Part shown: positions 2,629 through 30,180 of the stretch, in pieces
Numbering within the stretch: the stretch's first letter is position 1
Layout: each line of letters begins with the position of its first letter
Assembly: GCA_001443385.1 (NCBI GenBank)
Contig: LDXP01000005.1
Location: 2,146 to 66,145 of the forward strand
DNA length: 64,000 nucleotides
From: Candidatus Rokubacteria bacterium CSP1-6
Lineage (GTDB): Bacteria > Methylomirabilota > Methylomirabilia > Rokubacteriales > CSP1-6
Direction: 5' to 3'
Translations under genes and position numbers: made by a program
The notes under the pieces: generated by a model
Database searches by the model: none
What the model was told of the DNA's origin: nothing
What the model saw: only the letters and a program-made list of their open reading frames with translations

Positions 2629-2727
2629 CCGGTTCGCTCAACCTGGATAGAAATCATGATTCGGCAGACGGGAAGAGGTCTGGTCAGGAGTGACCGCACC
2701 CCCCGCCGAGCCGAAAAGGAGGCAGTC

Positions 2728-3759
2728 ATGAAACGCTCATGGACGTGGATCATCCCCGCGCTGCTGATCGCGACGGGGATCGGCCTGGGGCTGTTCGCCG
2801 GGCCGCTCGATGCTCAGCAGAAGAACGTCCTGGTGGCCAAGAAGGTCGCCGCCCCGCCGACCCTCGACGGGGTGATGGAGGATGCATGGAAGTCGGCGCC
2901 GGAGCTGGAGGTGACCGTTCGCGGCGGCCGCAACCTGCCGGAAGGCAAGACGGAGGTGAAGCTCCGCTCAGTCTACTCGGGCGACACGATTTATTTCCTC
3001 ATGCAGTACAAGGACGCGACCGAGAGCCTCCGCCGGGGCCCGTGGGTGAAGCAGGCCGACGGCTCCTGGCAGAAGCTGAAGGACCCCAACGACAAGGGCG
3101 GGGATAACAACCTCTACTACGAGGACAAGATGGCGGTGATCTGGAACATCTCCTCGCCCGCCTTCGAGGCCAAGGGGTGCCTGTCGGCCTGCCACACCGG
3201 CGAGGGGAAGCCCTTCGGCAACAAGTACACCGCCGACGCCGGCGAGCGCCTGGACATGTGGCACTGGAAGGGCGTGCGCACCGGGTACACGGGGCAGCTC
3301 GACGACCAGTACACGGACAACACGCGGTACGACAAGGAGAAGACCCCCAACGCCGGCAGGAAGAGCGACCCCAAGACGGGCGGCGGGTACGCGGACAACG
3401 TCAGCGACGACAAGAAGGGGCCGAAGTTCGCCCTCAAGGGCAACAAGCCCGCGCCGCCCTACTGGATCGTTGACAGCGAGAAGGAGGCGCTCGACGACTC
3501 GAAGTACAAGGCCGGCGACGAGGTTCCCGGAATCATCGTGTCGGCCTTCACCGGCGACCGCGGCGACGTCGCAGTGAAATGGACCTACAAGGACGGCGTC
3601 CGCACGCTGGAGATCGCGCGCAAGCTCGTGACCGGCAGCGAGTTCGACGTCCAGTTCAACGACCTGAAGAAGCAGTACGCCTTCGGCGTCGCCGTTTTCG
3701 ACAACGCCCAGGTGCGCCACGCCTGGCACCCGGGCGTCCTGAAGCTGGTGTTCGAGTAA
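2728..3759 (+). CDS. EB_dh-type haem-b binding protein (ethylbenzene dehydrogenase gamma / NxrC / DdhC-like)
   Basis: Internal Met with an AAGGAGG SD 7 nt upstream, and a signal/TM helix MKRSWTWIIPALLIATGIGLGLFA. 'APPTLDGVMEDAWKSAP', 'DTIYFLMQYKD' and 'DMWHWKGVRTG' are patterns I associate with the EB_dh/CBM9-like fold. Confidence 0.7.
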   Translation: MKRSWTWIIPALLIATGIGLGLFAGPLDAQQKNVLVAKKVAAPPTLDGVMEDAWKSAPELEVTVRGGRNLPEGKTEVKLRSVYSGDTIYFLMQYKDATESLRRGPWVKQADGSWQKLKDPNDKGGDNNLYYEDKMAVIWNISSPAFEAKGCLSACHTGEGKPFGNKYTADAGERLDMWHWKGVRTGYTGQLDDQYTDNTRYDKEKTPNAGRKSDPKTGGGYADNVSDDKKGPKFALKGNKPAPPYWIVDSEKEALDDSKYKAGDEVPGIIVSAFTGDRGDVAVKWTYKDGVRTLEIARKLVTGSEFDVQFNDLKKQYAFGVAVFDNAQVRHAWHPGVLKLVFE

Positions 3760-3873
3760 GCAGCACCCAGTCGGCGGTTGCCGACATCCGACGAGAGAGG
3801 TAGGATAGCGCGGGCGGCGCGACTTGCGCGCTTGCCCGCACAGCCGTTCGTTGTTCGTTTTTCGGGGAGGGTG

Positions 3874-5076
3874 ATGAACCTGGCCGTGAGGTGGGCCGTC
3901 GCCGCCGTCGCTTGTCTGCTCCTCTACTCTCCTGGGGCCGCGCTCGCCCAGCCGCTCTTCAGCCCGAGCCAGGACCCCGTCGCCGGCTCGCGCGTCTTTG
4001 GCGCCAAGGGCTGCGGCAAGTGTCACTCGATCAACGGCGTGGGCGGAAAGATCGGGCCCGACCTCGGCCGCATCCCGCGCCCCCGGTCGTTCTACGACCT
4101 CGCCGCCGCCATGTGGAACCACCTGCCCGAGATGGCCGAGCGCATGCGGAAGTTCGGCATCGCCCGCCCCTACCTCGATCCGCGGGAGACCGGCGACCTC
4201 ATCGCCTTCCTCTATACGCTCAACTACTTCGATCCCCCCGGCAACGTCCAGGCGGGGTCCCGGCTCTTCACGGAGAAGAAGTGCGTCGCCTGCCACCAGG
4301 TGGGGGGCGCCGGCGGGGTGGTCGGCCCGAACCTCGACGGGCTCGCGCAGTTCGGCTCTCCGATCCTTGTCGCCGCCGCGATGTGGAACCACGGGCCGGC
4401 CATGGCCGAGGCGATGCGCGTCCGGAAGATCGAGCGCCCGTCCTTCAAGGACTCAGAACTCCTCGACCTGATCGCCTACCTGAGGTCCACCGCCCCCCCC
4501 CGGCCCGCGCCCGCCGAGGGGCCGCTCTACGTCCTGCCCGGCCGCTCCGAGGAGGGGCGCCGGCTCTTCCTGGACAAGCGCTGCATCCTCTGCCATAGCG
4601 TCGGGGGCGTAGGCGGCCAGGTGGGGCCGGACTTGGGCGAGCGCGGGCTCAATTGGAGCCTGACCCAGTTCGCGGCTGCGATGTGGAACAAGGCGCCGAA
4701 GATGATGGAGGCGATGAGGGCGCGGGAAATCGCCGTCCCACAGCTCCAGGCCGAGGAGATGGCCGACCTGGTCGCCTATCTCTACTCCGTCCGGTACTTC
4801 GTCGAACCCGGGCACCCCGGGAAGGGGCGCCAGGCGCTCGCGGACAAGGGGTGCCTGGGCTGCCACTCAGTGGCCGGCGCCGGCGGCAAGGTCGCCAGCG
4901 ACTTCGCCAGGGTGAAGGGCCTCGACTCGCCCGGGACGGTCATCTCGGCGCTCTGGAACCACTCGTTCATCATGGAGCACCGGGCCGAGCGGCGGAAGGT
5001 CTCCTGGCCCAAGCTCCGCCCCGAGGAGATGGCGGACCTCGTGGCCTTCCTCCAGGCCCAGGGGCGCCCCCGGTGA
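3874..5076 (+). CDS. Periplasmic cytochrome c with four tandem monohaem class-I domains
   Basis: Signal peptide MNLAVRWAVAAVACLLLYSPGAALA. Four motifs: CGKCH, CVACH, CILCH, CLGCH. Each is followed by GP(D/N)L … AAAMWN(H/K) … (D/E)L(I/V)A(F/Y)L in a repeat of about 95 aa. Confidence 0.9.
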   Translation: MNLAVRWAVAAVACLLLYSPGAALAQPLFSPSQDPVAGSRVFGAKGCGKCHSINGVGGKIGPDLGRIPRPRSFYDLAAAMWNHLPEMAERMRKFGIARPYLDPRETGDLIAFLYTLNYFDPPGNVQAGSRLFTEKKCVACHQVGGAGGVVGPNLDGLAQFGSPILVAAAMWNHGPAMAEAMRVRKIERPSFKDSELLDLIAYLRSTAPPRPAPAEGPLYVLPGRSEEGRRLFLDKRCILCHSVGGVGGQVGPDLGERGLNWSLTQFAAAMWNKAPKMMEAMRAREIAVPQLQAEEMADLVAYLYSVRYFVEPGHPGKGRQALADKGCLGCHSVAGAGGKVASDFARVKGLDSPGTVISALWNHSFIMEHRAERRKVSWPKLRPEEMADLVAFLQAQGRPR

Positions 5077-5081
5077 CGGGC

Positions 5082-6359
5082 ATGCGGGGACTCGTCGCTC
5101 TCGCGTGGCTCGCTCTCGTGGGGATCGCCGCCCTGCCCGCGCCCGCAGCGGCCCAGCAGCAGCGGCCCGAGAGCTGCGCGGCCTGCCATCTCGAGACGGG
5201 AGACGAGCGCCTCGCGAATCCCGTGAAGCAGTTCGGCGAGGACATCCATTCGGCCAAGGGATTCGGGTGCGTGGCCTGTCACGGCGGGGACGCCAGGGAG
5301 GCCGGGATGGAGGCGATGGACCCCGCCAAGGGGTACATCGGCAAGCCCGAGCGCCGGCAGGTACTGCAGGTCTGCGGGCGCTGTCACTCCGACGCGCGCT
5401 TCATGAAGCAGTACAACCCGGCGCTGCGCGTCGACCAGGTGACGGAGTATGCCACGTCGGTGCACGGCCGGCGGCTCAGGGAGTTCGGCGATCCGAAGGT
5501 GGCGACCTGCGTGAACTGCCATCCCGCCCACTCGATCAAGCCGCCCTCGGATCCCCGGTCGAGCGTCCACCCGCTCAAGGTGGCGGACACGTGCGGCCGC
5601 TGCCACGGCGATCCGAAGTACATGGAGGCCTACAAGATCCCCACCGACCAGCTCGCCAAGTACAGGCAGAGCGTCCACTGGCGCTTGATGTCGGTGAAGG
5701 GCGACCTGTCGGCTCCCACGTGCAACGACTGCCACGGCAACCACGGCGCCGCGCCGCCGGGGATCTCCTGGGTGGGGAACGTCTGCGGGCAGTGCCACAC
5801 GGTGCAGGCGGAGTTTTTCGGGAAGAGTCCTCACGCGAAGGTGTTCGCCCAGATGGGTGTGCCCGGCTGCGCGACCTGCCACAGCAATCACGAGATCAAG
5901 GAGGCGACCGACGCGATGCTGGGGCTCGCCGACCAGGCCGTGTGCGCGGGGTGCCACGCCGCCGCGGACAAGGGCGGCAAGGCCGCCGCCGATATGCGCG
6001 CCCTCATCGACTCGCTCGGCGGCGAGTACGACAAAGCCCGCGCCATCCTGCTCCAGGCCGAGCGGGCGGGCATGGAGGTCAGCCAGGCCCAGTTCGACCT
6101 GAACGGCGCCAAGGACGCCTTGGTGAAGGCCCGCGCGGCCGTCCACGCGTTCGCCGTCGCGGCGGTGAAGAAGGAGACCGAACCGGGCCTCACGATCAGC
6201 GCCAAGGCCTACGCGCGGGGGGTGCGGGCGCTCGAAGAGCTCCAGTTCCGGCGGAAGGGGCTGGCGGTTTCGCTCGTGATCATCCTCGCGGTCATCGCGG
6301 GGATCGTCGTGAAGATCCGGCAGCTGGACCGCAAAGAACAGAGGACCCCCTCACCTTAA
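5082..6359 (+). CDS. Nonahaem c-type cytochrome with a C-terminal TM anchor
   Basis: Signal peptide MRGLVALAWLALVGIAALPAPAAA. Nine CxxCH motifs: CAACH, CVACH, CGRCH, CVNCH, CGRCH, CNDCH, CGQCH, CATCH, CAGCH. C-terminal helix LAVSLVIILAVIAGIVV. Confidence 0.9.
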   Translation: MRGLVALAWLALVGIAALPAPAAAQQQRPESCAACHLETGDERLANPVKQFGEDIHSAKGFGCVACHGGDAREAGMEAMDPAKGYIGKPERRQVLQVCGRCHSDARFMKQYNPALRVDQVTEYATSVHGRRLREFGDPKVATCVNCHPAHSIKPPSDPRSSVHPLKVADTCGRCHGDPKYMEAYKIPTDQLAKYRQSVHWRLMSVKGDLSAPTCNDCHGNHGAAPPGISWVGNVCGQCHTVQAEFFGKSPHAKVFAQMGVPGCATCHSNHEIKEATDAMLGLADQAVCAGCHAAADKGGKAAADMRALIDSLGGEYDKARAILLQAERAGMEVSQAQFDLNGAKDALVKARAAVHAFAVAAVKKETEPGLTISAKAYARGVRALEELQFRRKGLAVSLVIILAVIAGIVVKIRQLDRKEQRTPSP

Positions 6360-6484
6360 TCCTCTCCCCCTCACCCCACTCATAATCCCCTCACCTTCAT
6401 CCTCTCCCCCCGAGGGGGAGAGGGCAGGGTGAGGGGGATGAGGAGAAGAGGTGAGGGGCGTTTGAGTAGGGAGGGGTGAGGGGG
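6346..6484. repeat. MITE/REP-like palindromic element, copy 1
   Basis: Terminal inverted repeats CCCCCTCACC…GGTGAGGGGG and central palindrome CCTCTCCCCCCGAGGGGGAGAGG (6401-6423). Near-identical blocks recur at 33943, 38556 and 59403. Confidence 0.85.
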
Positions 6485-6499
6485 CACAGAGGAGACGTC

Positions 6500-6955
6500 A
6501 TGGCTGAGGAGACGCTGGATCGCGAGCCGACCCGCAGGGGATTCATCAACTGGTTTCTCGGCACGAGCGCGGTAGCGTTCCTGCTGTCGGTGTTCTACCC
6601 GGTGGGGCGGTACCTGATCCCGCCGCCGGTGGCGGAATCCACCGCGGGAACCGTGACGCTCCCCCTCAAGGCCGAGGACGTGAAGCCGAACACGGGGCAG
6701 ATCTTCAAGTTCGGCAACCGCCCGGCGATCCTGGTCCGCACGACGGCCGGCGAGCTCCGGGCCTTCTCCGCCGTCTGCACCCACCTCAACTGCACCGTGC
6801 AGTACCGGCCCGACCTCGGCCACATCTGGTGCGCCTGCCACAACGGGCATTTCGACCTCAACGGGAAGAACATCGCCGGTCCGCCCCCCCGGCCGCTCGA
6901 CCCCTACGTGGTGAACGTGCGGGGGAGGCAGATCGTGGTCAGTAAGAGCGCCTAG
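6500..6955 (+). CDS. Rieske 2Fe-2S subunit of a cytochrome bc/b6f-type complex
   Basis: GAGGAG SD before the ATG at 6500. RRGF twin-arginine-like N-terminus plus a TM helix. Cluster boxes CTHLNC and CACHNGH. Confidence 0.9.
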
Positions 6956-6957
6956 AG

Positions 6958-8055
6958 ATGGGGGGATCCGCGAAGCCACACGGCAGGCTCTGGACGTGGC
7001 TCGACGAGCGCGTCGGCCTCGCCGAACTGGAAAAGCTCGTCAAGAAGAAGGAGGTCCCGGTCCACCGGCATACCGTCTGGTACTACCTCGGCGGCATGAC
7101 CCTCTTTCTCTTCATGATCCAGGTGGCCACCGGCATCCTGCTCCTCTTCTACTACCGCCCCAGCGCCGAGGAGGCGTACGAGTCCGTCCAGTTCCTCATG
7201 GCCGAGGTGGAGTTCGGCTGGCTGATCCGCTCCATCCACTCCTGGGCGTCGAACCTGATGATCTTCACGCTCTTCATCCACCTCTTCAGCGTGCTGCTCC
7301 TCAAGGCCTACCGCCCGCCGCGCGAGGTGACGTGGCTGTCGGGGATCGGGCTCCTGGGCGTGGGGATGGGCTTCGGCTTCACCGGCTATCTGCTGCCGTG
7401 GAACGAGCTCGCCTACTTCGCCACGAAGGTCGGCACCGAGATCACCGGCGTCGTTCCCCTCGTCGGCCCATTCCTCGGCCGGCTCCTGCGCGGCGGCGAC
7501 GAGGTCACCGGCGCCACGCTCACACGCTTCTACGGCATTCACGTGGCGGTCCTGCCGTTGCTCACGACACTCATCCTGGGCCTCCACCTCTTCCTCGTCC
7601 AGAAGCACGGCATGAGCGTCCCGCCGGGCGTGGAGCGGGCCGGCGGCGCCAGGCGGACGATGCACTTCCTCCCCAACTTCCTCCTGCGCGACCTGGTGGG
7701 CTGGCTCTCCGCGCTCGCGATCCTTGCAGCGCTGGCGGCCTACTATCCGACGGAGTTGGGCCAGAAGGCGGACCCCTTCGCGCCCGCGCCCATCGGCATC
7801 AAGCCCGAATGGTACTTCATGTTCATGTTCAAGACGCTGAAGTACCTGCCGAGCTACATCCTCGGCATCGAGGGGGAGATCGTGGGGGTCGTCGGCTTCG
7901 GCATGGGCGGTCTGGTCCTGCTCCTCATCCCCTTCCTGGACCGGCGGACCGCCCGCGGCGAGCCGAGCCGCCTCTTCACCTGGATCGGCATCGCCATCAT
8001 CCTCTACATGATCGCGCTGACCTACCTCGGCTACACCGAGGTCGCCACGCAGTGA
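6958..8055 (+). CDS. Cytochrome b (fused b6 + subunit IV type)
   Basis: '[30 protein letters not shown]', '[14 protein letters not shown]' and '[13 protein letters not shown]' are hallmark cytochrome b/b6 segments. Confidence 0.93.
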
Positions 8056-8060
8056 CCCCG

Positions 8061-8678
8061 ATGCGCGCGCGCGCAATGGTCTTGCTCGGCGCAGCGCTCC
8101 TGGCCACCGGCCCACCGGCGGAGGCGCAGGCGCCTGGAGATGTGGCGCGCGGCCGCGCCATCTTCGAGCAGAAGCAGTGCGCCCGCTGCCACCAGCCCGG
8201 CGGCCAGGCCGGGCTGGGCCCCGCGCTGGAGGAGGTCAGGAGACCCCAGGGCGGACTGGAGCTGGCCGGCCGGATCTGGAACCACGCGCCGGTGATGTTC
8301 GCGCTGCTCAGGCAGCAGGGACTCGACTGGCCGCAGATCGGCGCGGCGGAGATGGCCGATCTCATGGCCTATCTCCGGGCCGACCCGGCGCGGGATCCCG
8401 CGCCCGACCTCCAGCAGGGGCAGGTTCTCCTGATCCGGAAAGGGTGCCTCAAGTGCCACCGCCTCCGCGGGGAGGGCGGCTCGGTGGGAATCGAGTTCAC
8501 GCGGTATCACGGCGGCTACCAGTCTCCCGTTGCCTGGGCCACCACGATCTGGAACCATTCGTCCCGGATGGCCGGGCATTCCGCGCGAATGGGCGTGCTC
8601 TACCCCCGCTTCACAGGTGACGAGATGGTGAACTTGTTCGGGTTTCTCAAAGGCTCCGCCGAAGTCTCACCGCGCTAA
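8061..8678 (+). CDS. Dihaem cytochrome c (two copies of the same module as 3874-5076)
   Basis: Signal peptide MRARAMVLLGAALLATGPPAEA. Motifs CARCH and CLKCH, each followed by IWNH … (D/E)(M)xxL(M/F)(A/G)(Y/F)L. Confidence 0.85.
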   Translation: MRARAMVLLGAALLATGPPAEAQAPGDVARGRAIFEQKQCARCHQPGGQAGLGPALEEVRRPQGGLELAGRIWNHAPVMFALLRQQGLDWPQIGAAEMADLMAYLRADPARDPAPDLQQGQVLLIRKGCLKCHRLRGEGGSVGIEFTRYHGGYQSPVAWATTIWNHSSRMAGHSARMGVLYPRFTGDEMVNLFGFLKGSAEVSPR

Positions 8679-8698
8679 TCCTAAGGAGGAGGGCAATC

Positions 8699-9052
8699 AT
8701 GCGACTCGGAGGTCTCGCGCTCGGCCTCGCGTTCGGGATCGGGCTCCTCGTCGGCGTCCCGGGCGACGCCCAGGTCAAGATCCCGCCGGACTTCGGCTTC
8801 GAGAAGGGCAAGGACAGCCCCGGCCCGGTCACCTTCAGCCACGAGAAGCACAAGGAGAAGGCGGAGAAGTGCACCGCCTGCCACACCAAGGTCTTCAAGA
8901 TGAAGAAGGGAACCTCCGGCACTCAGACCATGGCGGCGATGAAGGAAGGAAAGTTCTGCGGGAACTGCCACGACGGCAAGACCGAGCTGGGCGGCAAGGT
9001 CGTGTTCGCGGTGGAGGCCAAGGACAATTGCGAGAAGTGCCATAAGAAATAG
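8699..9052 (+). CDS. Small trihaem cytochrome (c7/c3-like)
   Basis: AAGGAGG SD and a signal peptide. Motifs CTACH, CGNCH and CEKCH within 117 aa. 'VTFSHEKH' is typical of the c7 family. Confidence 0.85.
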   Translation: MRLGGLALGLAFGIGLLVGVPGDAQVKIPPDFGFEKGKDSPGPVTFSHEKHKEKAEKCTACHTKVFKMKKGTSGTQTMAAMKEGKFCGNCHDGKTELGGKVVFAVEAKDNCEKCHKK

Positions 9053-10415
9053 CGGCCGCCTCCTGCTCCTGGCGGCTTCCCTGCTCCTCCTCCCCGACGC
9101 TGCCCGGGCGGCGGACGCCCCGACGGCCCAGGAGTGCCTGGCGTGCCACGGAGACCGGGAGTTGAAGCGGGGCGCCCCGGCACCCGGGCGCTCGCTCTCC
9201 CTCTTCGTCGACGAGGCCGCGGCCAAAGCCTCGGTCCACGCCCGCCTGGAGTGCGTGGCCTGCCACAAGACGGCCAGCGCGCCCCATGACGCGCCCCTCC
9301 CCGCCGTCCGCTGCGCCGAGTGCCACGCGAAAGCCCGCGGTGCCCTGAGCGAGGGGGTCCACGGGAGCGCGAAGGCGCGGGCGCCTACCTGCGCGGGCTG
9401 CCACGGGACTCACGCGGTGGCTTCAGCGGCATCGCTCGGCATCGAGACCTGCGCGGCCTGCCACGCGCGCCAGGTGACGCTCTACCGGGAAAGCATCCAC
9501 GCGCGCTCCCGCCAGCGCGGGGATTCCCAGGCGGCGACGTGCCGGTCGTGCCACGGCGAGGCGCACGCCCTCCTCGCGAAGACCGACGCGCGCGCGCCGA
9601 CGTACCACCTCAACCTGCCAAGGACCTGCGCCCAGTGCCACGCCGACCCGGAGCTGGCGAAGCGCTACAACATCCCGATCGGGAACGTGTACCAGCTCTA
9701 CATGGACTCGATTCACGGCCGGGCGCTGACGCGGAGCGGCCTCCTGGTGGCGGCCAACTGCTCGGACTGCCACGGCGCCCACGAGATCAAGCCGCGGGCC
9801 GAGCCGGCCTCCCGAGTATTCCGCGCCAACGTCCCCAAGACGTGTGGCGCGTGCCACGCGGGAATCCTGGCGGCCTACGCTGAGTCGGTTCACGGAACGC
9901 ATGTGGCCAAAGGAAACCTGAAGGCCCCGGTCTGCACCGACTGCCACAGCGCCCACCAGATCCGCCGCGTGGAGGGGGCGCCGTGGCAGCTGGAGGCGAT
10001 CCGGGAGTGCGGCACCTGCCACGAGGAGTCGCTGAAGACCTACCGTGACACCTTCCACGGCAAGGTGACCGCGCTGGGCTACACCCGGGTGGCCAAGTGC
10101 TCGGACTGCCACGGGGCCCATACGATCCTGCCGCCTTCCGATCCCCGCTCCACCGTCTCGCCCGCGAAGCTGGTCGCGACCTGCCGGCAATGCCACCCGC
10201 AGGCCATGGCCGCCTTCGCCGAGTTCCATCCCCACGCCGACTACCGGAACAAGGAGCGGTTCCCCCGGCTCTACTACACCTACCTCTTCATGAGCGGGCT
10301 CCTCGTGGCCGTGCTGGCCTCCTTCGGACTCCACGCCCTCCTCTGGCTCCCCCGCTCTCTCCTGGAGCGGCTGCGCCGGGGTCGCGCCGGCGGCGACACC
10401 AGGGGCGAGCCGTGA
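9027..10415 (+). CDS. 13-haem c-type cytochrome with a C-terminal TM helix; start codon uncertain (non-ATG/GTG/TTG)
   Basis: The track ORF starts at 9162, but the same frame is open from 8943. It encodes a signal peptide (…RLLLLAASLLLLPDAARA) and a first CLACH (9135-9149) upstream of that Met. ATT at 9027 has GGAGG 9 nt upstream. There are 13 CxxCH motifs in total. Confidence 0.75.
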   Translation: MARSAIRNSGRLLLLAASLLLLPDAARAADAPTAQECLACHGDRELKRGAPAPGRSLSLFVDEAAAKASVHARLECVACHKTASAPHDAPLPAVRCAECHAKARGALSEGVHGSAKARAPTCAGCHGTHAVASAASLGIETCAACHARQVTLYRESIHARSRQRGDSQAATCRSCHGEAHALLAKTDARAPTYHLNLPRTCAQCHADPELAKRYNIPIGNVYQLYMDSIHGRALTRSGLLVAANCSDCHGAHEIKPRAEPASRVFRANVPKTCGACHAGILAAYAESVHGTHVAKGNLKAPVCTDCHSAHQIRRVEGAPWQLEAIRECGTCHEESLKTYRDTFHGKVTALGYTRVAKCSDCHGAHTILPPSDPRSTVSPAKLVATCRQCHPQAMAAFAEFHPHADYRNKERFPRLYYTYLFMSGLLVAVLASFGLHALLWLPRSLLERLRRGRAGGDTRGEP

Positions 10416-11230
10416 ACGGCGGGGCGCGGTACTACTTCAGGCTGAACCTCTACCACCGGATCCTCCACGGCATGGTGATCGTGAGCTTTCTGGGGCTCGC
10501 CGTCACCGGCCTGCCGCTCAAGTACTCGCAGACCGGCTGGGGGTGGTGGCTGTCGCACCTCCTCGGGGGCCCCTTCACGACCGGATACCTCCACCGCTTC
10601 TTCGCCATCGTCACCTTCTGCTACTTCGCCTTGCACCTGGGCTACGTGGCCCGGCTGATCCTCACCGGCCGGCGCGGGGTCTTCTGGGGCCCCGCCTCGA
10701 TGGTCCCGCAGCCGCGTGACTTCGTGCAGCTGGCCCAGCACGTCCGCTACTTCCTCGGCCTGGGGCCGCGGCCCCGGTTCGATCGCTGGGCCTACTGGGA
10801 GAAGTTCGACTACTGGGCGGTCTTCTGGGGGGTGGCCGTGATCGGCGCCTCGGGGCTGCTCCTCTGGTTTCCGACCTTCTTCGCGCGCTACCTGCCCGGC
10901 TGGATCTTCAACGTGGCCATCCTCATCCACAGCGACGAGGCGCTCCTGGCGGTAGCCTTCATCTTCACGATCCACTTCTTCAACGTCCACCTCCGTCCCG
11001 AGAAGTTCCCGATGGACCCGGTGATCTTCACGGGCCGCCTCGAGGAGGAGGAGTTCCGGCGGGAGCACGCCGCCGAATACGAGCGGCTCAGGGCCGAGGG
11101 GCGGCTCGAGACCCTCCGGGCCGATCCGCCCCCCCGCTGGATGAGGAACTTCTCGCGGGTGGCCGGCTTCACCGCCCTGGCCATCGGGATCATCCTCATC
11201 TGGCTGATCGTGGCCACGGCGCTCCGATGA
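10412..11230 (+). CDS. Integral-membrane b-type cytochrome (FdnI/HydC/PhsC-like)
   Basis: GTG start overlapping the previous stop (GTGA). Polytopic, with conserved-looking His in the helices (YHRILHG, YLHRFF, LIHSDE, FTIHFFNVH). Confidence 0.7.
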   Translation: MNGGARYYFRLNLYHRILHGMVIVSFLGLAVTGLPLKYSQTGWGWWLSHLLGGPFTTGYLHRFFAIVTFCYFALHLGYVARLILTGRRGVFWGPASMVPQPRDFVQLAQHVRYFLGLGPRPRFDRWAYWEKFDYWAVFWGVAVIGASGLLLWFPTFFARYLPGWIFNVAILIHSDEALLAVAFIFTIHFFNVHLRPEKFPMDPVIFTGRLEEEEFRREHAAEYERLRAEGRLETLRADPPPRWMRNFSRVAGFTALAIGIILIWLIVATALR

Positions 11231-12144
11231 GCCCAGACCACCCGATGACCGAGGGGCCGAAACGCCGCTGGTGGCGGAGGCGCGGCCTCCTGGTTCCGCT
11301 CGGCATCGCCCTCGTGGTGGGCGGCGCCGCGCTGGTCGGCCTCTGGGAGATGAGCACGAGCCCGCTGCTCTGCAACTCCTGCCACATCATGAAGCCCTAC
11401 GTCGAGGCGTGGAAGACCTCGAAGCACAACAACGTGACGTGCGTGCAGTGCCATTACCCCCCCGGGTTCAGGGACACCATCTGGGTCAAGTACCAGGCGC
11501 TCGCCCAGGTGGTGAAATGGGCCACGCAAACATATAGCTCCAAGCCCTTCGCCGAGGTGGAGGACGCCAGCTGCCTCCGCTCCGGCTGCCACGACCGGCG
11601 CTTGCTCGACGGCAAGGCCGTCTTCAAGCGCGGGATCGTCTTCGACCACCGCCCGCATCTGGAGGAGGTGCGGCGGGGGCGCCAGCTGCGCTGCACGAGC
11701 TGCCACTCGCAGATCGTCGTGGGCACCCACATCGAGGTCACGGAATCCACCTGCTTCCTCTGCCACTTCAAGGGCATGAAGACCGGGCGGGAGCTCACGC
11801 CCATCGCCGGCTGCACCGGGTGCCACCAGCCGCCCAAGGGCGACATCCTGGTGGGGTCGATCCGGTTCAACCACGCGGACGTGATGCGCCGCGGCGTCGC
11901 CTGCCAGAAGTGCCACCTCAACGTCATCCAGGGTGAGGGCGAGGCGCCGCGCGAGCGCTGCTTCACCTGCCACAATCAGCCGGAGAAGCTCCAGCGCTAC
12001 CCGGACACCCCGTTCATCCACGATTTCCACGTGGCCGGGCACAACATCGAGTGCGCGCGATGCCACACGGAGATCAGGCACCGGCTGCCGCCGCCGATCG
12101 GGGTGCCGACGGCGGGGGAGCCCGGGGCCCCGCCGCGCACATGA
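11227..12144 (+). CDS. NapC/NirT/NrfH-like membrane-anchored multihaem cytochrome (8 CxxCH + 1 CX4CH)
   Basis: ATGA overlap with the previous gene. N-terminal TM helix directly followed by CNSCH, as in NapC/NirT. Further motifs: CVQCH, CLRSGCH, CTSCH, CFLCH, CTGCH, CQKCH, CFTCH, CARCH. Confidence 0.85.
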   Translation: MSPDHPMTEGPKRRWWRRRGLLVPLGIALVVGGAALVGLWEMSTSPLLCNSCHIMKPYVEAWKTSKHNNVTCVQCHYPPGFRDTIWVKYQALAQVVKWATQTYSSKPFAEVEDASCLRSGCHDRRLLDGKAVFKRGIVFDHRPHLEEVRRGRQLRCTSCHSQIVVGTHIEVTESTCFLCHFKGMKTGRELTPIAGCTGCHQPPKGDILVGSIRFNHADVMRRGVACQKCHLNVIQGEGEAPRERCFTCHNQPEKLQRYPDTPFIHDFHVAGHNIECARCHTEIRHRLPPPIGVPTAGEPGAPPRT

Positions 12145-13481
12145 CCCCTCTGCTCCGGCTCCTCGCCATCCTCGCGATCGGCCTCGGCGCGGCCGCCCCC
12201 GCTCTCGCCCAGCGCCCACCCGCGCCGCACGCCCCCGCTCCCCTCAGGCCCGAGCTGCCGCAGGAGCCGGCGAAGCCCCACCGGATGGGAGAGCTCGAGT
12301 GCCGGAACTGCCACCAGGCGAAGCACCAGGGCGTCCTCCGGATGTACCTCGGCATGGGGGGGCGCGGGACGGCCATGATCCCGAGCCACATGTTCCAGGT
12401 GCGCGTGGAGTGCGTCGCCTGCCACATTGTGCCGAAGGAAGCTGAAGGGGCGGCGGCCATCGTGGGCCAGACGTTCAGGCCCAGCGAGCAGGCGTGCCTC
12501 GGCTGTCACGGCGAGAAGTACCGCGGTATGCTGGCGCGCTGGGCGACGACGCTGAACCAGATAGGCGAGACGGTGGCCCTGAAGCTGGCGGCCGGGCGCG
12601 CGGTCCTCGCGGGCGCCGACCCGAAGAATCCCAAGCACGCGCGCGCCCGCGAGCTCGTGGAGGACGCCGACTTCAACGCCCAGTTCGTTACGCTCGGGAA
12701 GGGGGTGCACAATGTCTTCTACGCCGCGGATCTGCTCAAGCTCGCCAACGGCTGGCTCGACGAGGCGCTGGCCCTCCTCTCCAAGCCACCCCTCAAGATC
12801 GACGACGCCCTGGTGCGGGGGGGGTACTGCGGCGTCCTCTGCCACGAGCAGGCCGGCGTGAAGCAGTTCGAGACGGTCACGTTCGCGAAGCGGAAGATCC
12901 CGCACGTCCGCCACGTGAGCGAGTTCGGCGCCGTGTGCACCGCGTGCCACTCGGCCGAGGTTCACAAAGCCGTCACGGCCACTCCCGCCACCTGCGCCGC
13001 CTGCCATCACAACCCCATGAACGACCGGTGTGAGTCGTGCCACCGCGTTCAGAGCGCCTTTTACCGTGGAGGGGTGAAGACGGACTCGGCGAAGGTCGAG
13101 CCCAACGTCATGGTGAATGCGGTGGGCTGCACGGGGTGCCACGACTGGACGCAGAAGCATTCCCGCCGGGCCGTCGGCCAGAAGTGCGTCGGCTGCCACG
13201 ATGCCGCGTATCTCTCCTTCGCGACCGAGTGGACGGCGGGGCTCGACGATCAGGCGACACGGGCGGCCGCCACCCTCAAGCGGGCGGAGGCCGCGCTCTC
13301 GGCCGCGCGGCGCGCCGGCCGCGCGGCGCCGGGGGCCGACCTCCTGGTCAGGGAGGCGCGCGACGCGCTGGCGCTGGTCAGGACCGCGCGGGGCGTTCAT
13401 AATCCCCCCGCCGCCGAGGCGCTCCTCGAAGCCGCCCGCCTCAAAGCGGATGAGGCGCTCGCCCAGGCCGGCCGTCGCTGA
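12141..13481 (+). CDS. Periplasmic multihaem cytochrome (8 CxxCH + 1 CX3CH) with a helical C-terminal region
   Basis: ATGA overlap. Signal peptide MTPLLRLLAILAIGLGAAAPALA. Motifs: CRNCH, CVACH, CLGCH, CGVLCH, CTACH, CAACH, CESCH, CTGCH, CVGCH. Confidence 0.85.
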   Translation: MTPLLRLLAILAIGLGAAAPALAQRPPAPHAPAPLRPELPQEPAKPHRMGELECRNCHQAKHQGVLRMYLGMGGRGTAMIPSHMFQVRVECVACHIVPKEAEGAAAIVGQTFRPSEQACLGCHGEKYRGMLARWATTLNQIGETVALKLAAGRAVLAGADPKNPKHARARELVEDADFNAQFVTLGKGVHNVFYAADLLKLANGWLDEALALLSKPPLKIDDALVRGGYCGVLCHEQAGVKQFETVTFAKRKIPHVRHVSEFGAVCTACHSAEVHKAVTATPATCAACHHNPMNDRCESCHRVQSAFYRGGVKTDSAKVEPNVMVNAVGCTGCHDWTQKHSRRAVGQKCVGCHDAAYLSFATEWTAGLDDQATRAAATLKRAEAALSAARRAGRAAPGADLLVREARDALALVRTARGVHNPPAAEALLEAARLKADEALAQAGRR

Positions 13482-13485
13482 GCCC

Positions 13486-14328
13486 ATGGCGCGATCCCGC
13501 CGAGCGGCAGAGCCCGAGATTCCCCGGCGCGACTGGTGGGTCGCCGCCCTCGCGGCCATCGGCGTCCTCGTCGCGGGCTACCTGGCGGTCAACAAGTGGA
13601 GCGGCGGCACCGCGCTCCTCTGTACCGCGGGCAGCGGCTGCGACATCGTCCAGGCGAGCCGCTACGCCGTCGTTCTCGGTCTTCCCACGGCGGCCTGGGG
13701 CGCCGGGCTCTACGCGGCGGTCGGGGCGCTGGCGCTCCTGGGGCTCCCCCCGCGGCGCTGGCTCGCCGCCTTCCTTCTGGCCGTCGCGGGGACGTCGTTC
13801 TCCCTCTATCTCACCTACCTCTCGATCTTCGCCGTCGGCGCCACGTGCGCGTACTGCCTCGCCTCGGCAGGGATCGCCCTCGGGCTCTTCGGCCTCCTGC
13901 TCCTCCGGCGTCCCCCCGCCACCGGCCGCAGGTCCCCCGTGAGGGCGACGCGCGTCGTGGCCCTGGGAAGCGCCACGGCGCTGGTCACGGTCATCCTCGG
14001 AGCCGCAGTGTTCGCCACACTCGAGCCGAAGGAGGCGGCCACCTATCAGGAAGCCCTCGCCCGCCACCTCAAGGCGAGCGGCGCCGTCATGTACGGCGCC
14101 TACTGGTGACCCGCATGCAAGGAGCAAAAGGCCCGGTTCGGGCCTTCAGCCGAGCTCCTCCCGTACGTCGAGTGCGACCCGAAAGGGATCGGGGCCCGGC
14201 CGGACCTCTGCGGGCGCATCGGCGTGAGGGCCTATCCGACGTGGATCGTCGGCAGCGAGCGCTACGAGGGCGTCCTCACCCTCGACCGGCTGGCCGAAGC
14301 CTCGCGCTTCGCGGGCCCGACGCGCTGA
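13486..14328 (+). CDS. VKOR (vitamin K epoxide reductase family)-thioredoxin-like fusion with in-frame TGA (14107-14109) at the first position of the CxxC motif; candidate selenoprotein
   Basis: VKOR motifs: CTAGSGC loop pair and CAYC in a TM helix. After 'MYGAYW' comes TGA, then 72 sense codons in the same frame: PACKEQKARFG…PYVECDP…RAYPTWIVG… to TGA at 14326-14328. This is a thioredoxin-fold tail with W-[TGA]-P-A-C and a cis-Pro YPTW. Confidence 0.65.
14121..14158 (+). promoter_or_regulatory. Candidate bacterial SECIS hairpin downstream of the in-frame UGA
   Basis: Upper stem AAGGCCCG/CGGGCCTT (14128-14135 / 14139-14146) with apical loop GUU. Possible lower stem GGAGC/GCTCC (14121-14125 / 14154-14158). 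The apical loop begins 26 nt after the UGA. Confidence 0.35.
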
Positions 14329-14458
14329 GGCACCCGCGCCCCACCGGCGGAAACGGTTGCCCCACCGGCCAGCGCTCGGGTGCCTGGTCAGCAGAACCAC
14401 CGCGTCTCTAACCGCTCACAATCACTGGGGTTTCGGATATCTCGACGGACCGTCCCCC

Positions 14459-23389: not shown

Positions 23390-24520
23390 TCAGAGCGGAT
23401 AGCGCAGGAGCGCCGCCACGCCGCCCACGCGCGCCAGCGCCTGATGGATCTCGACTGTCTCCACCTTGCCGCCCGCGGCGATGACCCGATCCACGATCGC
23501 CCCCCCCAGCTCCGCCGCCTCGGTGGGCTTGCCGCACAGGCGGCAGCTGGCGGCGTCGCCGCTCTGGAGCGCCCCGCACTCGACGCAGAGACGGCCGGGC
23601 TGACTGAACCTCCCCAGCAGGTAGAGGCGCTGCACCGCGCCGCGGGCGACGGCCTCGAGCGTCTCTTCGAGCCCCGCGACGGCCCGCCCCCCTTTCGCCG
23701 CCTCGGTGAGGACCGCCTCCACCGCGTCCGCCCCTTCTCCGCCCCGGAGGTGCGCCAGAAACTCGGCGGCGCGCCCGACCAGGACCGCCGCCGACTCGTG
23801 GCGCGCGCCGGCGATGCTGCCGACAACCCGCTCGGCGATTCGGTTGGGCAGCCGCTTCTGGAAGACCGCGATCGTCCTCGGCTCCCCCGCCATGAGGATT
23901 CGCCGCACCCCGTTCCCCTCGGTCAGGCCGATGAGCGCCTCCACCACCGCCTCGAAGTGGCGCCCCCGATGATCCTGGATGTGGCGCTGGTAGCGGGACT
24001 GGGCCAGCTGCGCCCAGCCGCCCCGGCGGTGATGGCCGGGAACCTCACTCTCCAGGGCCACCTCCTCCCCCACGCCCTCGGTCGTCAACGGCACGAGGCG
24101 GGCGCTCTCGCCGTCGACGAAGACCACCAGCGCCGACGGGGTCTTCTCCAGCAACGCCGCCAGGGGGGAGAGGTGCGGCGCGTCGGCCACGACGAAGGCG
24201 CTCTCGAACGGAACCCGGACCGGGATGATGTCCCGAAGGCCCAGCGCCCGACAGGCGAAGAGCGCGACGCCGTGGGCCTCGGGGAACCGCGACTGCGTGA
24301 TGAGCGCGTCGCCTTCGGCCTGGATCCAGTCCAGGTCGGCCTCCATCCCCTCAGCGGTTGAGGCCTTGCGCGCCTTTCGGATCTCGTTCTTGAGGAAGAC
24401 CCGGACCCGGTCGCGCTGATGCTCGTCCCCCCAGCGGGTGTTCAGGTACACGCTCACCACGGGGGTCTCGCGCGTCCCCCGCAGCTTGGCCAGCTCTGTC
24501 AACCGCGCGCTGACGTCCAT
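23390..24520 (-). CDS. Bacterial eRF1/Pelota-like (aeRF1-superfamily) protein with a C-terminal zinc ribbon; GGQ not conserved
   Basis: Three-domain eRF1-like layout. The loop 'HHRRGGWAQLAQSRYQRH' sits where aRF1 has 'GRGGQSAxRFxR'. CVECG…CRLCG ribbon and an eRF1 domain-3-like end '…VAALLRYPL'. Confidence 0.65.
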   Translation of the reverse strand: MDVSARLTELAKLRGTRETPVVSVYLNTRWGDEHQRDRVRVFLKNEIRKARKASTAEGMEADLDWIQAEGDALITQSRFPEAHGVALFACRALGLRDIIPVRVPFESAFVVADAPHLSPLAALLEKTPSALVVFVDGESARLVPLTTEGVGEEVALESEVPGHHRRGGWAQLAQSRYQRHIQDHRGRHFEAVVEALIGLTEGNGVRRILMAGEPRTIAVFQKRLPNRIAERVVGSIAGARHESAAVLVGRAAEFLAHLRGGEGADAVEAVLTEAAKGGRAVAGLEETLEAVARGAVQRLYLLGRFSQPGRLCVECGALQSGDAASCRLCGKPTEAAELGGAIVDRVIAAGGKVETVEIHQALARVGGVAALLRYPL

Positions 24521-24913: not shown

Positions 24914-25363
24914 TCAGACGGATCCCCAGAGGCCGGGGTGATACAGCACGACCGGCAGCCGGGACTTCCGGAAGACCTGCTCGGCCACGCTCCCGAGCAC
25001 CGTGCGGCCGACCCCGCTCCGTCCCGCCGTCGCCACCGCGATGACGTCGGCGCCGAAGGCCTCGGACTCCAGGAGGATCTCCTGCACCGGGTCCCCGAAC
25101 CTCACGACGCACTCCACCGGGATCCCTTCGAGCTGGACCTCGACGGCCCGCAGGTAATCCATCCCCTCCGCCTCCAGGCGCTCCATCTCCTGGTCCAGAT
25201 AGGCGATGACCTGCCCCGTCTCGCTCACGAGGGCCTGCGGCAGCGGGGCCACGTGGAGCAGGCGCACGGTCGCCCCCGCCCCGCGGGCGGCATCCGCCAC
25301 CACCGGCACGATCGACTCCGCCAGCGGTGAGACATCCAGCGGCACCAGAATTCGCTTCGCCAT
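24914..25363 (-). CDS. Universal stress protein (UspA family)
   Basis: ILVPLDVSPLAE … GADVIAVATAGRSGVGRTVLGSVAEQV. Confidence 0.88.
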   Translation of the reverse strand: MAKRILVPLDVSPLAESIVPVVADAARGAGATVRLLHVAPLPQALVSETGQVIAYLDQEMERLEAEGMDYLRAVEVQLEGIPVECVVRFGDPVQEILLESEAFGADVIAVATAGRSGVGRTVLGSVAEQVFRKSRLPVVLYHPGLWGSV

Positions 25364-25366
25364 GGT

Positions 25367-26482
25367 CTATCCCTCCCCTGCTGCCGCGCCCGGCGACGCG
25401 CCACCGAAGCTCTGCTCGACAGCCTCTAGATCGAACGGCCCCAGATCCCCCATGGAGGCGGCGAAGTTGAGGAGCGCGATCCGCACGCCCTCGGGGATGC
25501 GCGGGTACCAGCGCGGATGGGCGATCACGAGCGCCCGGCCGGCGTAGAACGGCGGGAGCACCTCGAACAGCTCATGATCGCCGCTCCGAGCGCGGTACCC
25601 CTCGAGGAACCGGTGGAAGAACCCTTTGAAGGGCTCCGCCAGGCCCGGCCCCTTCAGGAGGCCGAAGAACAGGTAGTTGATGCTGAGGGCGGCCACGTCG
25701 TCGGCCGGCTCCCCCCACTCGCCCCGGCTCCGGTCCAGCACCGAGAAATCGGTCCCCTCGCGGAAGAGGAGGTTCCACGGATGGAAGTCCCCGTGGACCC
25801 GCGCCAGCCGGTGGGTGAACCCGCGCAGCCGCCAGCGCCACTCGACCGCTGCATGCTCCAGGGCCGCGCACGCCTCGGGCGGCAACAGCGGGTATGGATG
25901 CGGGTAGCTGTCGAGGATCCCCATGAGGCACTCGCCGTGCCCGACGAGCTCGCGGACCCGCCGCTGGTAGAGCCAGGGCGCCCGCTTCTTCTCCGCGTGG
26001 ATCTCGGCCAGGTAGCCCGCCAGGGCGTCCACCCGCCCGAGGTCCAGCGAACGCGCCTCTTCGGTGAGGAGGCGATCCAGATCGAGCCAGTACGGCGTTC
26101 CCTCGGCCTTCTCGACGAGCTGGAAGAATTCCGCCGAGTCGCCGGCCGAGACCAGCTCGCCGCCCGCGCGCACGAACCCGACGTCCAAGCTCCTGACGTG
26201 GCGCGGCAGCGCGTTGAATGCGGCGTGCCCCCACAGCGCGGCCCAGGCGCGGTCCGCCGGGTACTCGTGGCCGAAGCCCTCCTCGGGCCGGGTCCGGGCC
26301 AGGACGAACTGCCGGGGCTCGCCCCCGATGAGGCACTCCACCTCGAGCGGCACCCCGTAGCCGAAGGCCTTGGGATTGGCCCCCTCGCCGAGATTGTCCT
26401 TGAGGGGCCGCACGCCCAGCAGCTCGACCGGCCGCCGGAAGACCCGGGCAAGGTACGCCTGCAGCTCCCTCGACTCGATCAT
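25367..26482 (-). CDS. Phosphotransferase/kinase-fold protein (APH/choline-kinase-like)
   Basis: Catalytic-loop-like 'RVHGDFHPWNLLF' followed by 'VLDRSRGEWGEPADDVA'. Confidence 0.65.
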   Translation of the reverse strand: MIESRELQAYLARVFRRPVELLGVRPLKDNLGEGANPKAFGYGVPLEVECLIGGEPRQFVLARTRPEEGFGHEYPADRAWAALWGHAAFNALPRHVRSLDVGFVRAGGELVSAGDSAEFFQLVEKAEGTPYWLDLDRLLTEEARSLDLGRVDALAGYLAEIHAEKKRAPWLYQRRVRELVGHGECLMGILDSYPHPYPLLPPEACAALEHAAVEWRWRLRGFTHRLARVHGDFHPWNLLFREGTDFSVLDRSRGEWGEPADDVAALSINYLFFGLLKGPGLAEPFKGFFHRFLEGYRARSGDHELFEVLPPFYAGRALVIAHPRWYPRIPEGVRIALLNFAASMGDLGPFDLEAVEQSFGGASPGAAAGEG

Positions 26483-26492
26483 GCGTCCCGCC

Positions 26493-26939
26493 TTATTTCC
26501 CGCGGACCGTGAGCACCGGGCACGGGGCCAGCGCGATCACCCGCTCGGCCACGCTGCCGAGGAAGAATTTGGACAGGCCGCTACGCCCGTGAGTCCCCAT
26601 CACGATCAGGTCGGCGCGCTTGGAGCGGGCGACCCGCGCGATCCGGTCGTAGGGCACGCCCTCCAGCAGCACCGCCTTGACCCGCGCCTTGGCCTTCTGG
26701 GCCTTGGCCACCACCTTGGCCAGCTCCCGCTGCGCGCCCCGGCGAGCCGAAGCCTCCAGCTCCTCGTAGGTTTTGGGGGAGATGTATCCGTCCCCGATGA
26801 ACGGCGTCGTCGGGAGCAGCACGTGGACCAGCAGGAGCTCGGCCCGGCTCTCCTTGGCCAGGGCCACGGCCTTCAGGAACGCCGCGCCCGAGGCGCGGGA
26901 GAAATCGGTGGGATGAAGAATCCGACGAACCCCCTTCAT
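26493..26939 (-). CDS. Universal stress protein (UspA family)
   Basis: ILHPTDFSRAS … ADLIVMGTHGRSGLSKFFLGSVAERV. Confidence 0.88.
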   Translation of the reverse strand: MKGVRRILHPTDFSRASGAAFLKAVALAKESRAELLLVHVLLPTTPFIGDGYISPKTYEELEASARRGAQRELAKVVAKAQKAKARVKAVLLEGVPYDRIARVARSKRADLIVMGTHGRSGLSKFFLGSVAERVIALAPCPVLTVRGK

Positions 26940-26960
26940 ACCCGGACTCCTTTCATGGGC

Positions 26961-27311
26961 TTACTCTGACACCAGCCGCTTCGCGGCGAAGTACTTCTTG
27001 GGGTAGCGGGCCCGCTCCAGGCGCCGCTCCCGGTACTCCGCCAGCTCCCGCTTCAGGCCGCCGAAGCTCCGGTCGAAGGCGAGCCACGCGTTCTCGGCCA
27101 CGTCTTCCACCCGGATCGCGGGCCGCCGCGGGATGCGGACGGTCAGCGCGCAGCGCAGGGCCCGGCCTCCCTTGGGACCGTTGTCGTCGATGAAGGTCAC
27201 CACGGCCGTGACCGGGCTCGCCTGGATCCGCCCGAGTTCCCGGTTGAGCCGCCTCTCGATCCGGGCGCCGAGCGCCGGCGCCAGCGACACGCCGCGAAGT
27301 TCGATTTTCAT
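26961..27311 (-). CDS. HPF/RaiA-family ribosome-associated (hibernation-type) protein, short form
   Basis: MKIELRGVSL … AVVTFIDDNGPKGGRALRCALTVRIPRRPAIRVEDVAENAWLAFDRSF matches the HPF/RaiA-like pattern. Start at the internal Met of track ORF 26961..27407. Confidence 0.65.
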   Translation of the reverse strand: MKIELRGVSLAPALGARIERRLNRELGRIQASPVTAVVTFIDDNGPKGGRALRCALTVRIPRRPAIRVEDVAENAWLAFDRSFGGLKRELAEYRERRLERARYPKKYFAAKRLVSE

Positions 27312-27321
27312 GGAGGCGCCC

Positions 27322-29499: not shown

Positions 29500-29502
29500 G
29501 GC

Positions 29503-30000: not shown

Positions 30001-30046
30001 GGATCTCTCCTTTCGCTGGCGGTCGGTTCCGCCCATCCAGGCAAAC

Positions 30047-30062
30047 TGCAACGGAGGTGCCA
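30047..30062 (-). promoter_or_regulatory. Sigma-54 (-24/-12) promoter upstream of the Usp-led gene string
   Basis: The minus strand reads TGGCACctccgTTGCA, matching TGGCAC-N5-TTGC(A/T) at all invariant positions. It lies 47-62 nt upstream of the ATG at 30000 and immediately downstream of a sigma-54 activator gene. Confidence 0.7.
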
Positions 30063-30180
30063 TGGGGAGGGAGAAGGAGAAGGATTGAAAATCGAGGAGT
30101 TACTGCTGAGACGGGGCGCGGGCAGCGGGCACCATCTGAGGCGCGGTCACCCCAGGTGGGGCAGGCTCCTCGGGGACGGC

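Follow-up and report, generated by a model that had tools for sequence, protein, structure and literature searches.

The VKOR–thioredoxin (Trx) fusion of the cyanobacterium Synechococcus, a structure reportedly owed to Li et al. 2010, is the closest described counterpart of the gene considered here, which occupies positions 13486-14328 (+) of a 64,000-nucleotide stretch of Candidatus Rokubacteria bacterium CSP1-6 (contig LDXP01000005.1; the whole stretch is hereafter the window). VKOR homologues without a fused Trx domain occur in other bacteria. The relay of the Synechococcus enzyme runs from substrate thiols to Cys209/Cys212, then to Cys50/Cys56, then to Cys130/Cys133 and finally to a quinone, and in the crystal Cys209 is disulfide-bonded to Cys50 (PMC3800646, PMC4555152). 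A second set of related proteins, the UxxC thioredoxin-fold selenoproteins (Sec-thioredoxin of PF00085, DsbA-like form 1, DsbG-like and thiol:disulfide interchange protein; PMC13188914), have selenocysteine (Sec, U) in place of the N-terminal Cys of CxxC, possess Cys orthologues and carry a selenocysteine insertion sequence (SECIS) hairpin inside the coding sequence just 3′ of the UGA. The window gene resembles both. It shares domain order, length and all three redox pairs with the Synechococcus protein, but has a UGA (Sec) where that protein has Cys209, giving the motif U-P-A-C in place of C-P-H-C, and it lies inside a multihaem cytochrome cluster of a Methylomirabilota/Rokubacteria-type host rather than in a cyanobacterium. 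It shares the features listed above with the UxxC selenoproteins, which, in contrast, have no fusion to a quinone-reducing membrane module. Comparative sequence evidence makes it very probable that UGA 14107-14109 encodes selenocysteine and that 13486-14328 is a single full-length selenoprotein gene.

The gene starts at ATG 13486 and runs for 207 sense codons to TGA 14107-14109. The residues before this codon read …ASGAVMYGAYW, the stretch ending …KASGAVMYGAYW. The same frame continues beyond the TGA for exactly 72 sense codons, PACKEQKARFGPSAELLPYVECDPKGIGARPDLCGRIGVRAYPTWIVGSERYEGVLTLDRLAEASRFAGPTR, up to a second TGA at 14326-14328; this tail starts PACKEQKARFGP, includes the peptide FGPSAELLPYVECDPK and finishes RFAGPTR. 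If the first TGA is recoded, the junction reads …ASGAVMYGAYWUPACK and the gene comprises 280 codons (207 + Sec + 72) plus a stop, covering a VKOR domain, a fifth transmembrane helix (TM5) with linker and a thioredoxin-like domain, as judged from the frame, the match to PF07884 and the match to 3KP9/4NV2. Gene callers annotate 13486..14106 (+), as seen in database clusters and contigs, as a 207-aa 'VKOR family protein', which holds the VKOR core, the fifth transmembrane helix, the linker and the first strand of the Trx-like domain. The 72 post-UGA codons (14110..14325, +) supply the rest of that domain (…PYVEC…C…YPTW…), an assignment that draws on dN/dS (below), the match to 3KP8 and colinearity with relatives. 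The program-made list of open reading frames (ORFs) has just two entries here, the truncated frame and an antisense ORF of 84 aa (14146..14400). All of this agrees with an earlier note on this DNA, which had proposed the interrupted frame, its 72-codon extension and the antisense ORF.

The protein belongs with the VKOR–Trx fusions of bacteria and plants, such as Synechococcus VKOR and LTO1, by every family feature we looked at: a VKOR domain, a loop Cys pair, a CxxC in TM4 and a C-terminal Trx-like domain, with the Trx redox pair present as U-x-x-C in place of C-x-x-C, a Sec variant of the family feature. Pfam VKOR (PF07884) matches residues 17-137 with 84.6 bits (cutoff 27.5, E=9e-24), and Pfam Thioredoxin matches the C-terminal part with 17.3 bits, below its cutoff of 23.5. 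When the read-through protein with Cys substituted at the TGA is compared with the PDB, residues 19-275 align with the Synechococcus VKORC1/thioredoxin-domain protein (3KP9, 4NV2/4NV5/4NV6) at E=3e-41, and the isolated Trx-like domain (3KP8) is matched at E=2e-23. Counting along the alignment, the TGA codon (U208; 14107..14109, +) corresponds to Synechococcus Cys209, the first redox residue of the Trx motif, and C211 (14116..14118, +) to its resolving residue Cys212. C46 (TGT 13621-13623) and C52 (TGC 13639-13641), the loop pair spanning 13621..13641 (+), correspond to Cys50/Cys56, and the active-site cysteines of C121-A-Y-C124 (13846..13857, +) to Cys130/Cys133, the active site by the quinone (PMC3800646); both pairs occupy invariant columns. 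The earlier note had reported these two VKOR pairs as intact (CTAGSGC and CAYC), which they are, and the cyanobacterial sequence that it quoted is right, the 4NV2 alignment giving MYGAYWCPHCQDQKELFG…PYVEC…SYPTWI.

The position of the TGA is not peculiar to this contig. Among 5.8 billion proteins searched, 23 clusters matched with 67-98% identity; each is about 207 aa long and ends …YGA[YF]W, and every full-length relative (at most 64% identity) reads …YGA[YF]W-C-x-x-C; these include P0022-24, P0053 and P0072, which are ordinary Cys forms and not annotated Sec proteins. In a 23-sequence alignment the TGA falls on the invariant Cys column (C208) of 22 full-length homologues, and the tail is colinear with theirs to the C terminus. 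We obtained the relatives' DNA by looking up encoding contigs and by scanning species-representative genomes, where a search with the single protein yielded one close relative only and an alignment-based search widened the set. This gave 29 distinct DNA sequences with TGA at codon 208 and 56 distinct relatives with TGC or TGT. The 29 TGA forms, which diverge down to roughly 50-55% protein identity, include 24 species-representative assemblies (Rokuibacteriota, Methylomirabilota, NC10) and a few evidently mis-binned contigs. The Cys-type VKOR–Trx proteins of other Methylomirabilota (e.g. P0017, P0021; L013, L027-L056) are orthologous to the window protein at 50-64% identity, colinear with it and endowed with the same conserved residues, but have TGC or TGT at this codon, mostly in a C-P-H-C motif, and most have no hairpin at the equivalent position (typically AAGGCGCTCTTCGGCGAC).

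Some of these genes carry unexpected taxon labels. Methylomirabilota-type VKOR–Trx genes L018, L043, L045-L047, L050, L052, L055 and L056 lie on contigs labelled Kiloniellaceae, Thermodesulfobacteriota, Dormiibacterota, Nitrosotalea, Verrucomicrobiia, Deferrimicrobiaceae, Binatia or Limnocylindria, suggesting mis-binning or horizontal transfer.

The tail downstream of the TGA is translated. In each complete TGA form it runs for 69-77 codons without a stop and terminates near the same point, within a few codons of the true termination codon of the window gene (TGA 14326..14328, +), using TGA, TAG or TAA. We compared the ratio of nonsynonymous to synonymous substitution rates (dN/dS) as pairwise Nei-Gojobori medians over codons +16 to +59 of the TGA forms: it is 0.32 in the reading frame of the tail, close to the 0.37 of the 28 codons ahead of the TGA, versus 1.34 and 1.76 in the +1 and +2 shifted frames. 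In 29/29 Sec forms the TGA is followed immediately by P-[A/V]-C, with the resolving cysteine C211 always TGC, and the window tail has no in-frame ATG, GTG or TTG between the TGA and mid-domain. The open frame, the dN/dS values, the constant P-[A/V]-C and the lack of an early start codon together exclude pseudogene decay and separate initiation of the tail, or make them very unlikely.

A hairpin follows the UGA. It has the form AAGGCCCG-GUU-CGGGCCUU at 14128-14146 (8 bp, -12.8 kcal/mol), within which a conserved 6-bp core pairs GGCCCG (14130-14135) with CGGGCC (14139-14144) around the loop GUU (14136-14138) at -10.3 kcal/mol. The core begins 20 nt 3′ of the TGA. The loop G lies 26 nt after it; this spacing and the hairpin position 14128-14146 are those that the earlier note had given, as our recalculation confirms. 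This putative bacterial SECIS core (14130..14144, +), identified by its pairing and its frozen synonymous sites, overlies the codons K-A-R-F-G-P. In TGA forms codons +7 to +11 read AAG GCC CGG TTC GGG with the wobble positions fixed (Ala GCC in 29/29, Arg CGG in all 28 of 28 Arg codons, Gly GGG in 28/29), whereas Ala codons just outside the hairpin alternate freely between GCC and GCG. Cys forms vary in both residue and codon at these positions, typically reading AAG GCG CTC TTC GGC GAC. An RNAalifold consensus reaches -12.7 kcal/mol with a 6-bp stem in TGA forms, versus -0.8 kcal/mol and no equivalent structure in Cys forms. Across the 29 Sec forms the stem is 98-100% paired, being kept in 28/29, and the 3′-arm changes found in three sequences are all G-C to G-U, so that pairing is retained despite a Pro to Ser replacement.

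The element agrees with the published description of bacterial SECIS (bSECIS) elements, which allows 3-9 nt for the apical loop and 4-16 bp for the upper stem, and asks for G at one of the first two loop positions, a UGA-to-loop spacing of 16-37 nt and a minimum free energy (MFE) of at most -7.5 kcal/mol (PMC13188914). With its GUU loop, 6-8 bp, 26 nt and -10.3 to -12.8 kcal/mol, the window hairpin agrees with that model on all four counts. Like the consensus on which bSECISearch is based, it is a stem-loop inside the ORF just past the UGA with a small loop that starts with G then U; unlike it, it has a very short, perfect 6-bp GC stem, a 3-nt loop, no bulge and no conserved lower stem. The best-characterised bacterial SECIS elements are those of E. 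coli formate dehydrogenase. The lower stem GGAGC/GCUCC that the earlier note had considered possible occurs in the window only and is not conserved. An AA/UU extension and an outer GCGG/CCGC helix, which appear in some MFE folds, are likewise not conserved or no better than shuffles.

The machinery for selenocysteine insertion is present in related genomes that carry the TGA form. We scanned species genomes for the pyridoxal-phosphate-binding lysine motif of SelA in high-GC codons, having verified the motif on PDB entries 8UZW and 3W1H. In the Methylomirabilia locus L123, from a sister metagenome-assembled genome (MAG), selA (TIGR00474, 552 versus 268 bits) is followed by selB (TIGR00475, 371 versus 242 bits). 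SelB at 79% identity or more is found in more than 120 clusters, one of them named Rokuibacteriota, and searching with an alignment of the C-terminal portion of SelB that is specific to this lineage gave at least about 30 Methylomirabilota loci. Among the matches listed, 20 of the 30 scanned loci have a tRNA-Sec gene about 1.2 kb upstream of selA according to ARAGORN, and in the three loci checked Rfam RF01852 confirms it with 70-76 bits (gathering score 47). The tRNA beside selA-selB in this lineage has an 8-bp acceptor stem, a UCA anticodon and discriminator G, and is thus a canonical selC. At least two assemblies hold both a TGA-type VKOR gene and tRNA-Sec, selA and selB: QHRT01 (Rokuibacteriota AR8), with the selC-selA-selB locus L236 and the VKOR locus L035, and CAYQDR01, with L245 and L040, respectively. 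The earlier note had proposed looking for such components in the rest of the genome or bin; tRNA-Sec, selA and selB are found in both of these related carriers. In L236 selD is not found between tRNA-Sec and selA or adjacent to selC-selA-selB. Published surveys place the phylum among selenium users: one Methylomirabilota MAG has 63 predicted selenoprotein genes (PMC13188914), and Methylomirabilota are among nine phyla with Sec-type [NiFeSe] hydrogenases in a survey that found selABCD in about 90% of the Sec-type genomes it covered (PMC13582414).

The arrangement in Methylomirabilota is tRNA-Sec, two small genes, selA and selB (L236 897-5705; L245 904-5699), and it recurs in L218, L220, L221 and about 15 further loci, with selD outside the cluster. 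One of the small genes between tRNA-Sec and selA has a DUF3105-like HEPYNSDPPTSGPH motif, and selB is followed by large polytopic membrane proteins that resemble glycosyltransferase family 39.

Several observations weigh against selenocysteine at codon 208. The window itself contains no tRNA-Sec gene (scans including Rfam) and no SelA, SelB or SelD by tblastn over its 64 kb. An open frame of 72 codons has a chance of about 24% in the 69%-GC DNA of the window, so that ORF length is no evidence and the argument lies in homology and the comparative data. The hairpin stem is near-invariant among the 29 Sec forms and shows no compensatory covariation (0 double changes), and the peptide KARFG, which is found in some Cys forms too, explains part of its conservation. 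The stability of the 60-nt region is ordinary for its GC content (z = -1.5 in the window, about 0 in relatives), z-scores carrying no information in DNA so rich in GC. Gathering and permissive Rfam scans of the window match no SECIS model, the Sec form L061 has a weakened 4-bp hairpin (-6.5 kcal/mol), and a 3-nt loop sits at the lower limit of the bSECIS model. Set against these points are the observed correspondence of UGA and Cys, the translated tail, the conserved hairpin specific to Sec forms and the Sec machinery in related carrier genomes.

Two alternatives accept a functional gene and dispute what is made from it. The UGA could be recoded to Cys or another standard residue, either by a SelB- and SECIS-dependent tRNA-ReC (selC*) or by near-cognate read-through of a leaky UGA-C. 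tRNA-ReC-like tRNAs do decode UGA as Cys given a SECIS and occur in some Sec-using phyla (PMC13582414), and sequence data do not distinguish Sec from Cys at the ribosome; yet the tRNA of this lineage is the canonical selC with discriminator G rather than a tRNA-ReC with discriminator U, and SelA, which converts Ser-tRNASec to Sec-tRNASec, is present. A costly UGA and hairpin kept just to insert Cys are also hard to reconcile with a TGC or TGT codon that is one mutation away and is used by sister lineages, and we regard recoding to a standard residue as improbable. Slightly less probable still is that the locus makes two proteins, a 207-aa VKOR that stops at the TGA and a small thioredoxin-like protein whose synthesis starts anew in the tail. 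Sec insertion is always in competition with termination at the UGA, which makes some truncated VKOR product likely, and homologues lacking the Trx fusion are known, as mentioned at the outset. However, a tail starting at the first available in-frame start codon, in mid-domain, would miss the β1 strand and the first redox residue, the P-[A/V]-C that completes the redox motif is conserved in 29/29 Sec forms, and the frozen, Sec-specific hairpin would be left without explanation.

The other two alternatives treat the codon as an accident or as ordinary. One is that a nonsense mutation has turned the Trx domain into a pseudogene, or that a TGC was misread in sequencing or assembly; a TGA is one base from TGC and TGT, and the open frame behind it could be a product of GC-rich DNA. 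Such an accident is refuted by the 29 diverged sequences that share the TGA with a tail that is intact and under purifying selection in all of them, and by the recurrence of the window allele: at least 22 contigs, assembled independently from several JGI and ENA samples, encode the exact 207-aa product, and the four of these that we inspected at the DNA level all have TGA, three being identical to the window across 843 nt. None of the three findings that the earlier note had named as refutations is seen: the downstream frame has not decayed in TGA-bearing relatives, the TGA is not a misread TGC, and insertion machinery is present in the two related carriers. The Sec-containing orthologues that it had suggested looking for exist. 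A genome-wide sense UGA, as in code 4 or 25, has nothing in its favour beyond the in-frame UGA itself. It is refuted by the use of TGA, the commonest stop codon in the window, to end 28 of 43 confidently coding window ORFs, including this gene at 14326-14328. A scan for TGA codons flanked by high GC at third codon positions gave ordinary gene boundaries only, and no other credible in-frame TGA was found in the window. Selenocysteine insertion at codon 208 accordingly remains by far the most probable reading of the UGA.

By analogy with established bacterial Sec biology, the short GC hairpin would form in the nascent mRNA 20 nt past the UGA, where SelB·GTP·Sec-tRNASec would bind it and deliver Sec to the A-site against release factor 2. 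Translation would then run on through the 72 further codons. The predicted product is a 280-residue membrane thiol oxidoreductase with five transmembrane helices and a periplasmic thioredoxin-like domain bearing W-U-P-A-C. Electrons would pass from U208/C211 to C46/C52, then to C121/C124 and on to the membrane quinone, in the direction of an oxidase by homology. Because Sec takes the position of Synechococcus Cys209, U208 would be the exposed residue that exchanges with substrates and with C46 through selenenylsulfides, with C211 resolving them, and the first disulfide of the relay would be replaced by a selenenylsulfide. Compared with Cys, Sec would probably bring faster exchange, a lower pKa and protection from irreversible over-oxidation.

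Sec and Cys forms are interleaved inside the Methylomirabilota clade in a neighbour-joining tree without support values. Three Cys forms retain remnants of the hairpin: L043 (GGGCCGGTTCGGGCCC), which neighbours the Sec form L047 in this tree; L013 (GGCCCGCTTCGGGGCG), which neighbours the Sec form L022; and L053 (GGCCCGGTTCGGGTCG), which was not placed in the tree. These remnants suggest recent Sec-to-Cys conversions. In L053 (CAWKCA010000001.1, about 2122-2290) the Cys motif is TGC GCA CAT TGC and the hairpin is near-intact. Homology in its frame is lost after …PYVECDPK, which could reflect a frameshifted pseudogene or an indel in a long-read assembly.

The mechanism proposed for this gene is a textbook one, that of a UxxC thioredoxin-fold selenoprotein whose SECIS lies within the ORF. 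The novelty lies in the family and in its architecture, Sec standing at the entry point of a quinone-coupled VKOR relay in the membrane, and in the association with multihaem clusters. VKOR (PF07884) is absent from the 119 families and subfamilies of the May 2026 selenoprotein catalogue (PMC13188914 Table 1) and unmentioned in the other searchable selenoproteome papers and supplements; Deng et al. 2026, Haft & Tolstoy 2025 and BSepDB lay outside this scope, so an earlier computational listing is possible. NCBIfam release 20 has no VKOR selenoprotein model and gives only sub-threshold generic VKOR matches. The public protein records that we found for TGA forms are all truncated at the UGA, and dozens of them name a 207-aa "VKOR family protein" that omits the whole catalytic thioredoxin domain. 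A family model with U at position 208 would mend this annotation across the phylum. A natural Sec/Cys pair, in a relay with a solved structure and electron path, also allows one to ask what selenium gives to an oxidative-folding catalyst, be it exchange rate, redox potential or resistance to over-oxidation. The gene also strengthens the case that Methylomirabilota/Rokubacteria of soil and groundwater use selenium heavily, and ties a selenoprotein to their multihaem cytochrome electron-transfer clusters.

The VKOR–Trx gene closes a co-oriented upstream cluster (2656..13481, +), defined by Pfam matches, synteny and CxxCH counts, and is followed downstream by FeoAB. The cluster encodes an EB_dh-like haem protein, c-type cytochromes, Rieske/cytochrome b, a c7-type cytochrome, a 12-haem cytochrome, a NapC/NirT-type 8-haem cytochrome and another 8-haem cytochrome, as well as a 9-haem protein and a 272-aa membrane protein that were identified by transfer from identical contigs. 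Its synteny is kept in the closest relatives. It is haem-rich, as the earlier note had described, with a strict count of 46 CxxCH sites in all rather than the 49 given there.

Association with multihaem genes extends beyond the window. Defining a multihaem neighbour as an ORF with at least three CxxCH sites within 1.5 kb, we find one at 15 of 29 Sec-type loci, compared with 1 of all 55 Cys-type loci (Fisher p = 7e-8) and 1 of the 22 Cys-type loci of the same clade (p = 3e-4), both tests being uncorrected for phylogeny. The sole Cys-type gene with such a neighbour is L043, the sister of the Sec form L047. These counts offer genuine though preliminary support for the idea that the Sec form is functionally tied to multihaem cytochromes. 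The link with the haem-rich cluster that the earlier note had suggested gains statistical backing from them, and a specific part in cytochrome c maturation is an inference. One tentative and rather doubtful proposal is that the Sec-type VKOR–Trx protein might go beyond a selenium variant of a housekeeping disulfide catalyst and be a dedicated quinone-linked selenol/thiol module that co-evolved in Methylomirabilota with multihaem and Rieske-cytochrome b clusters, and could control the redox state of the dozens of apocytochrome CxxCH cysteines during maturation. If true, the DsbB/VKOR class of membrane disulfide relays would gain its first selenoenzyme.

The surroundings of the gene vary among relatives. 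In the Sec-type loci L020, L025, L026, L032, L036 and L038, the gene immediately beyond VKOR–Trx (about 1.5 kb downstream) is an ORF for a decahaem cytochrome with 10 CxxCH sites; in the window FeoAB takes that place. In the P0011 lineage (86% identical; L003 11059-13745, L004, L005) a molybdopterin oxidoreductase (784 aa) and a NapB-like gene stand between VKOR–Trx and feoAB, an insertion that the window does not have.

Elsewhere in the window, a bacterial eRF1-like gene at 23390-24520 (-) matches Pfam baeRF_family10 with 86 bits and, more weakly, baeRF_family2 and eRF1 domains; it adjoins a radical-SAM gene about 9 kb from the Sec gene, and nothing ties it to UGA recoding, although a protein akin to release factors so close to a recoded gene is of note. 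About six adjacent genes at 24914-30063 (-) have UspA-like N termini (MAKRILVPLDVSPLAE…, VYQRVLVPLDGSRVAE…), and this run is followed by an apparent response-regulator gene and a sensor-type gene, all of them judged by N-terminal motifs only. At 56829-57875 (-) lies a TnpB-like gene with OrfB_IS605 and Cas12f1-like TNB domains, a relative of the IS200/IS605-family RNA-guided nucleases.

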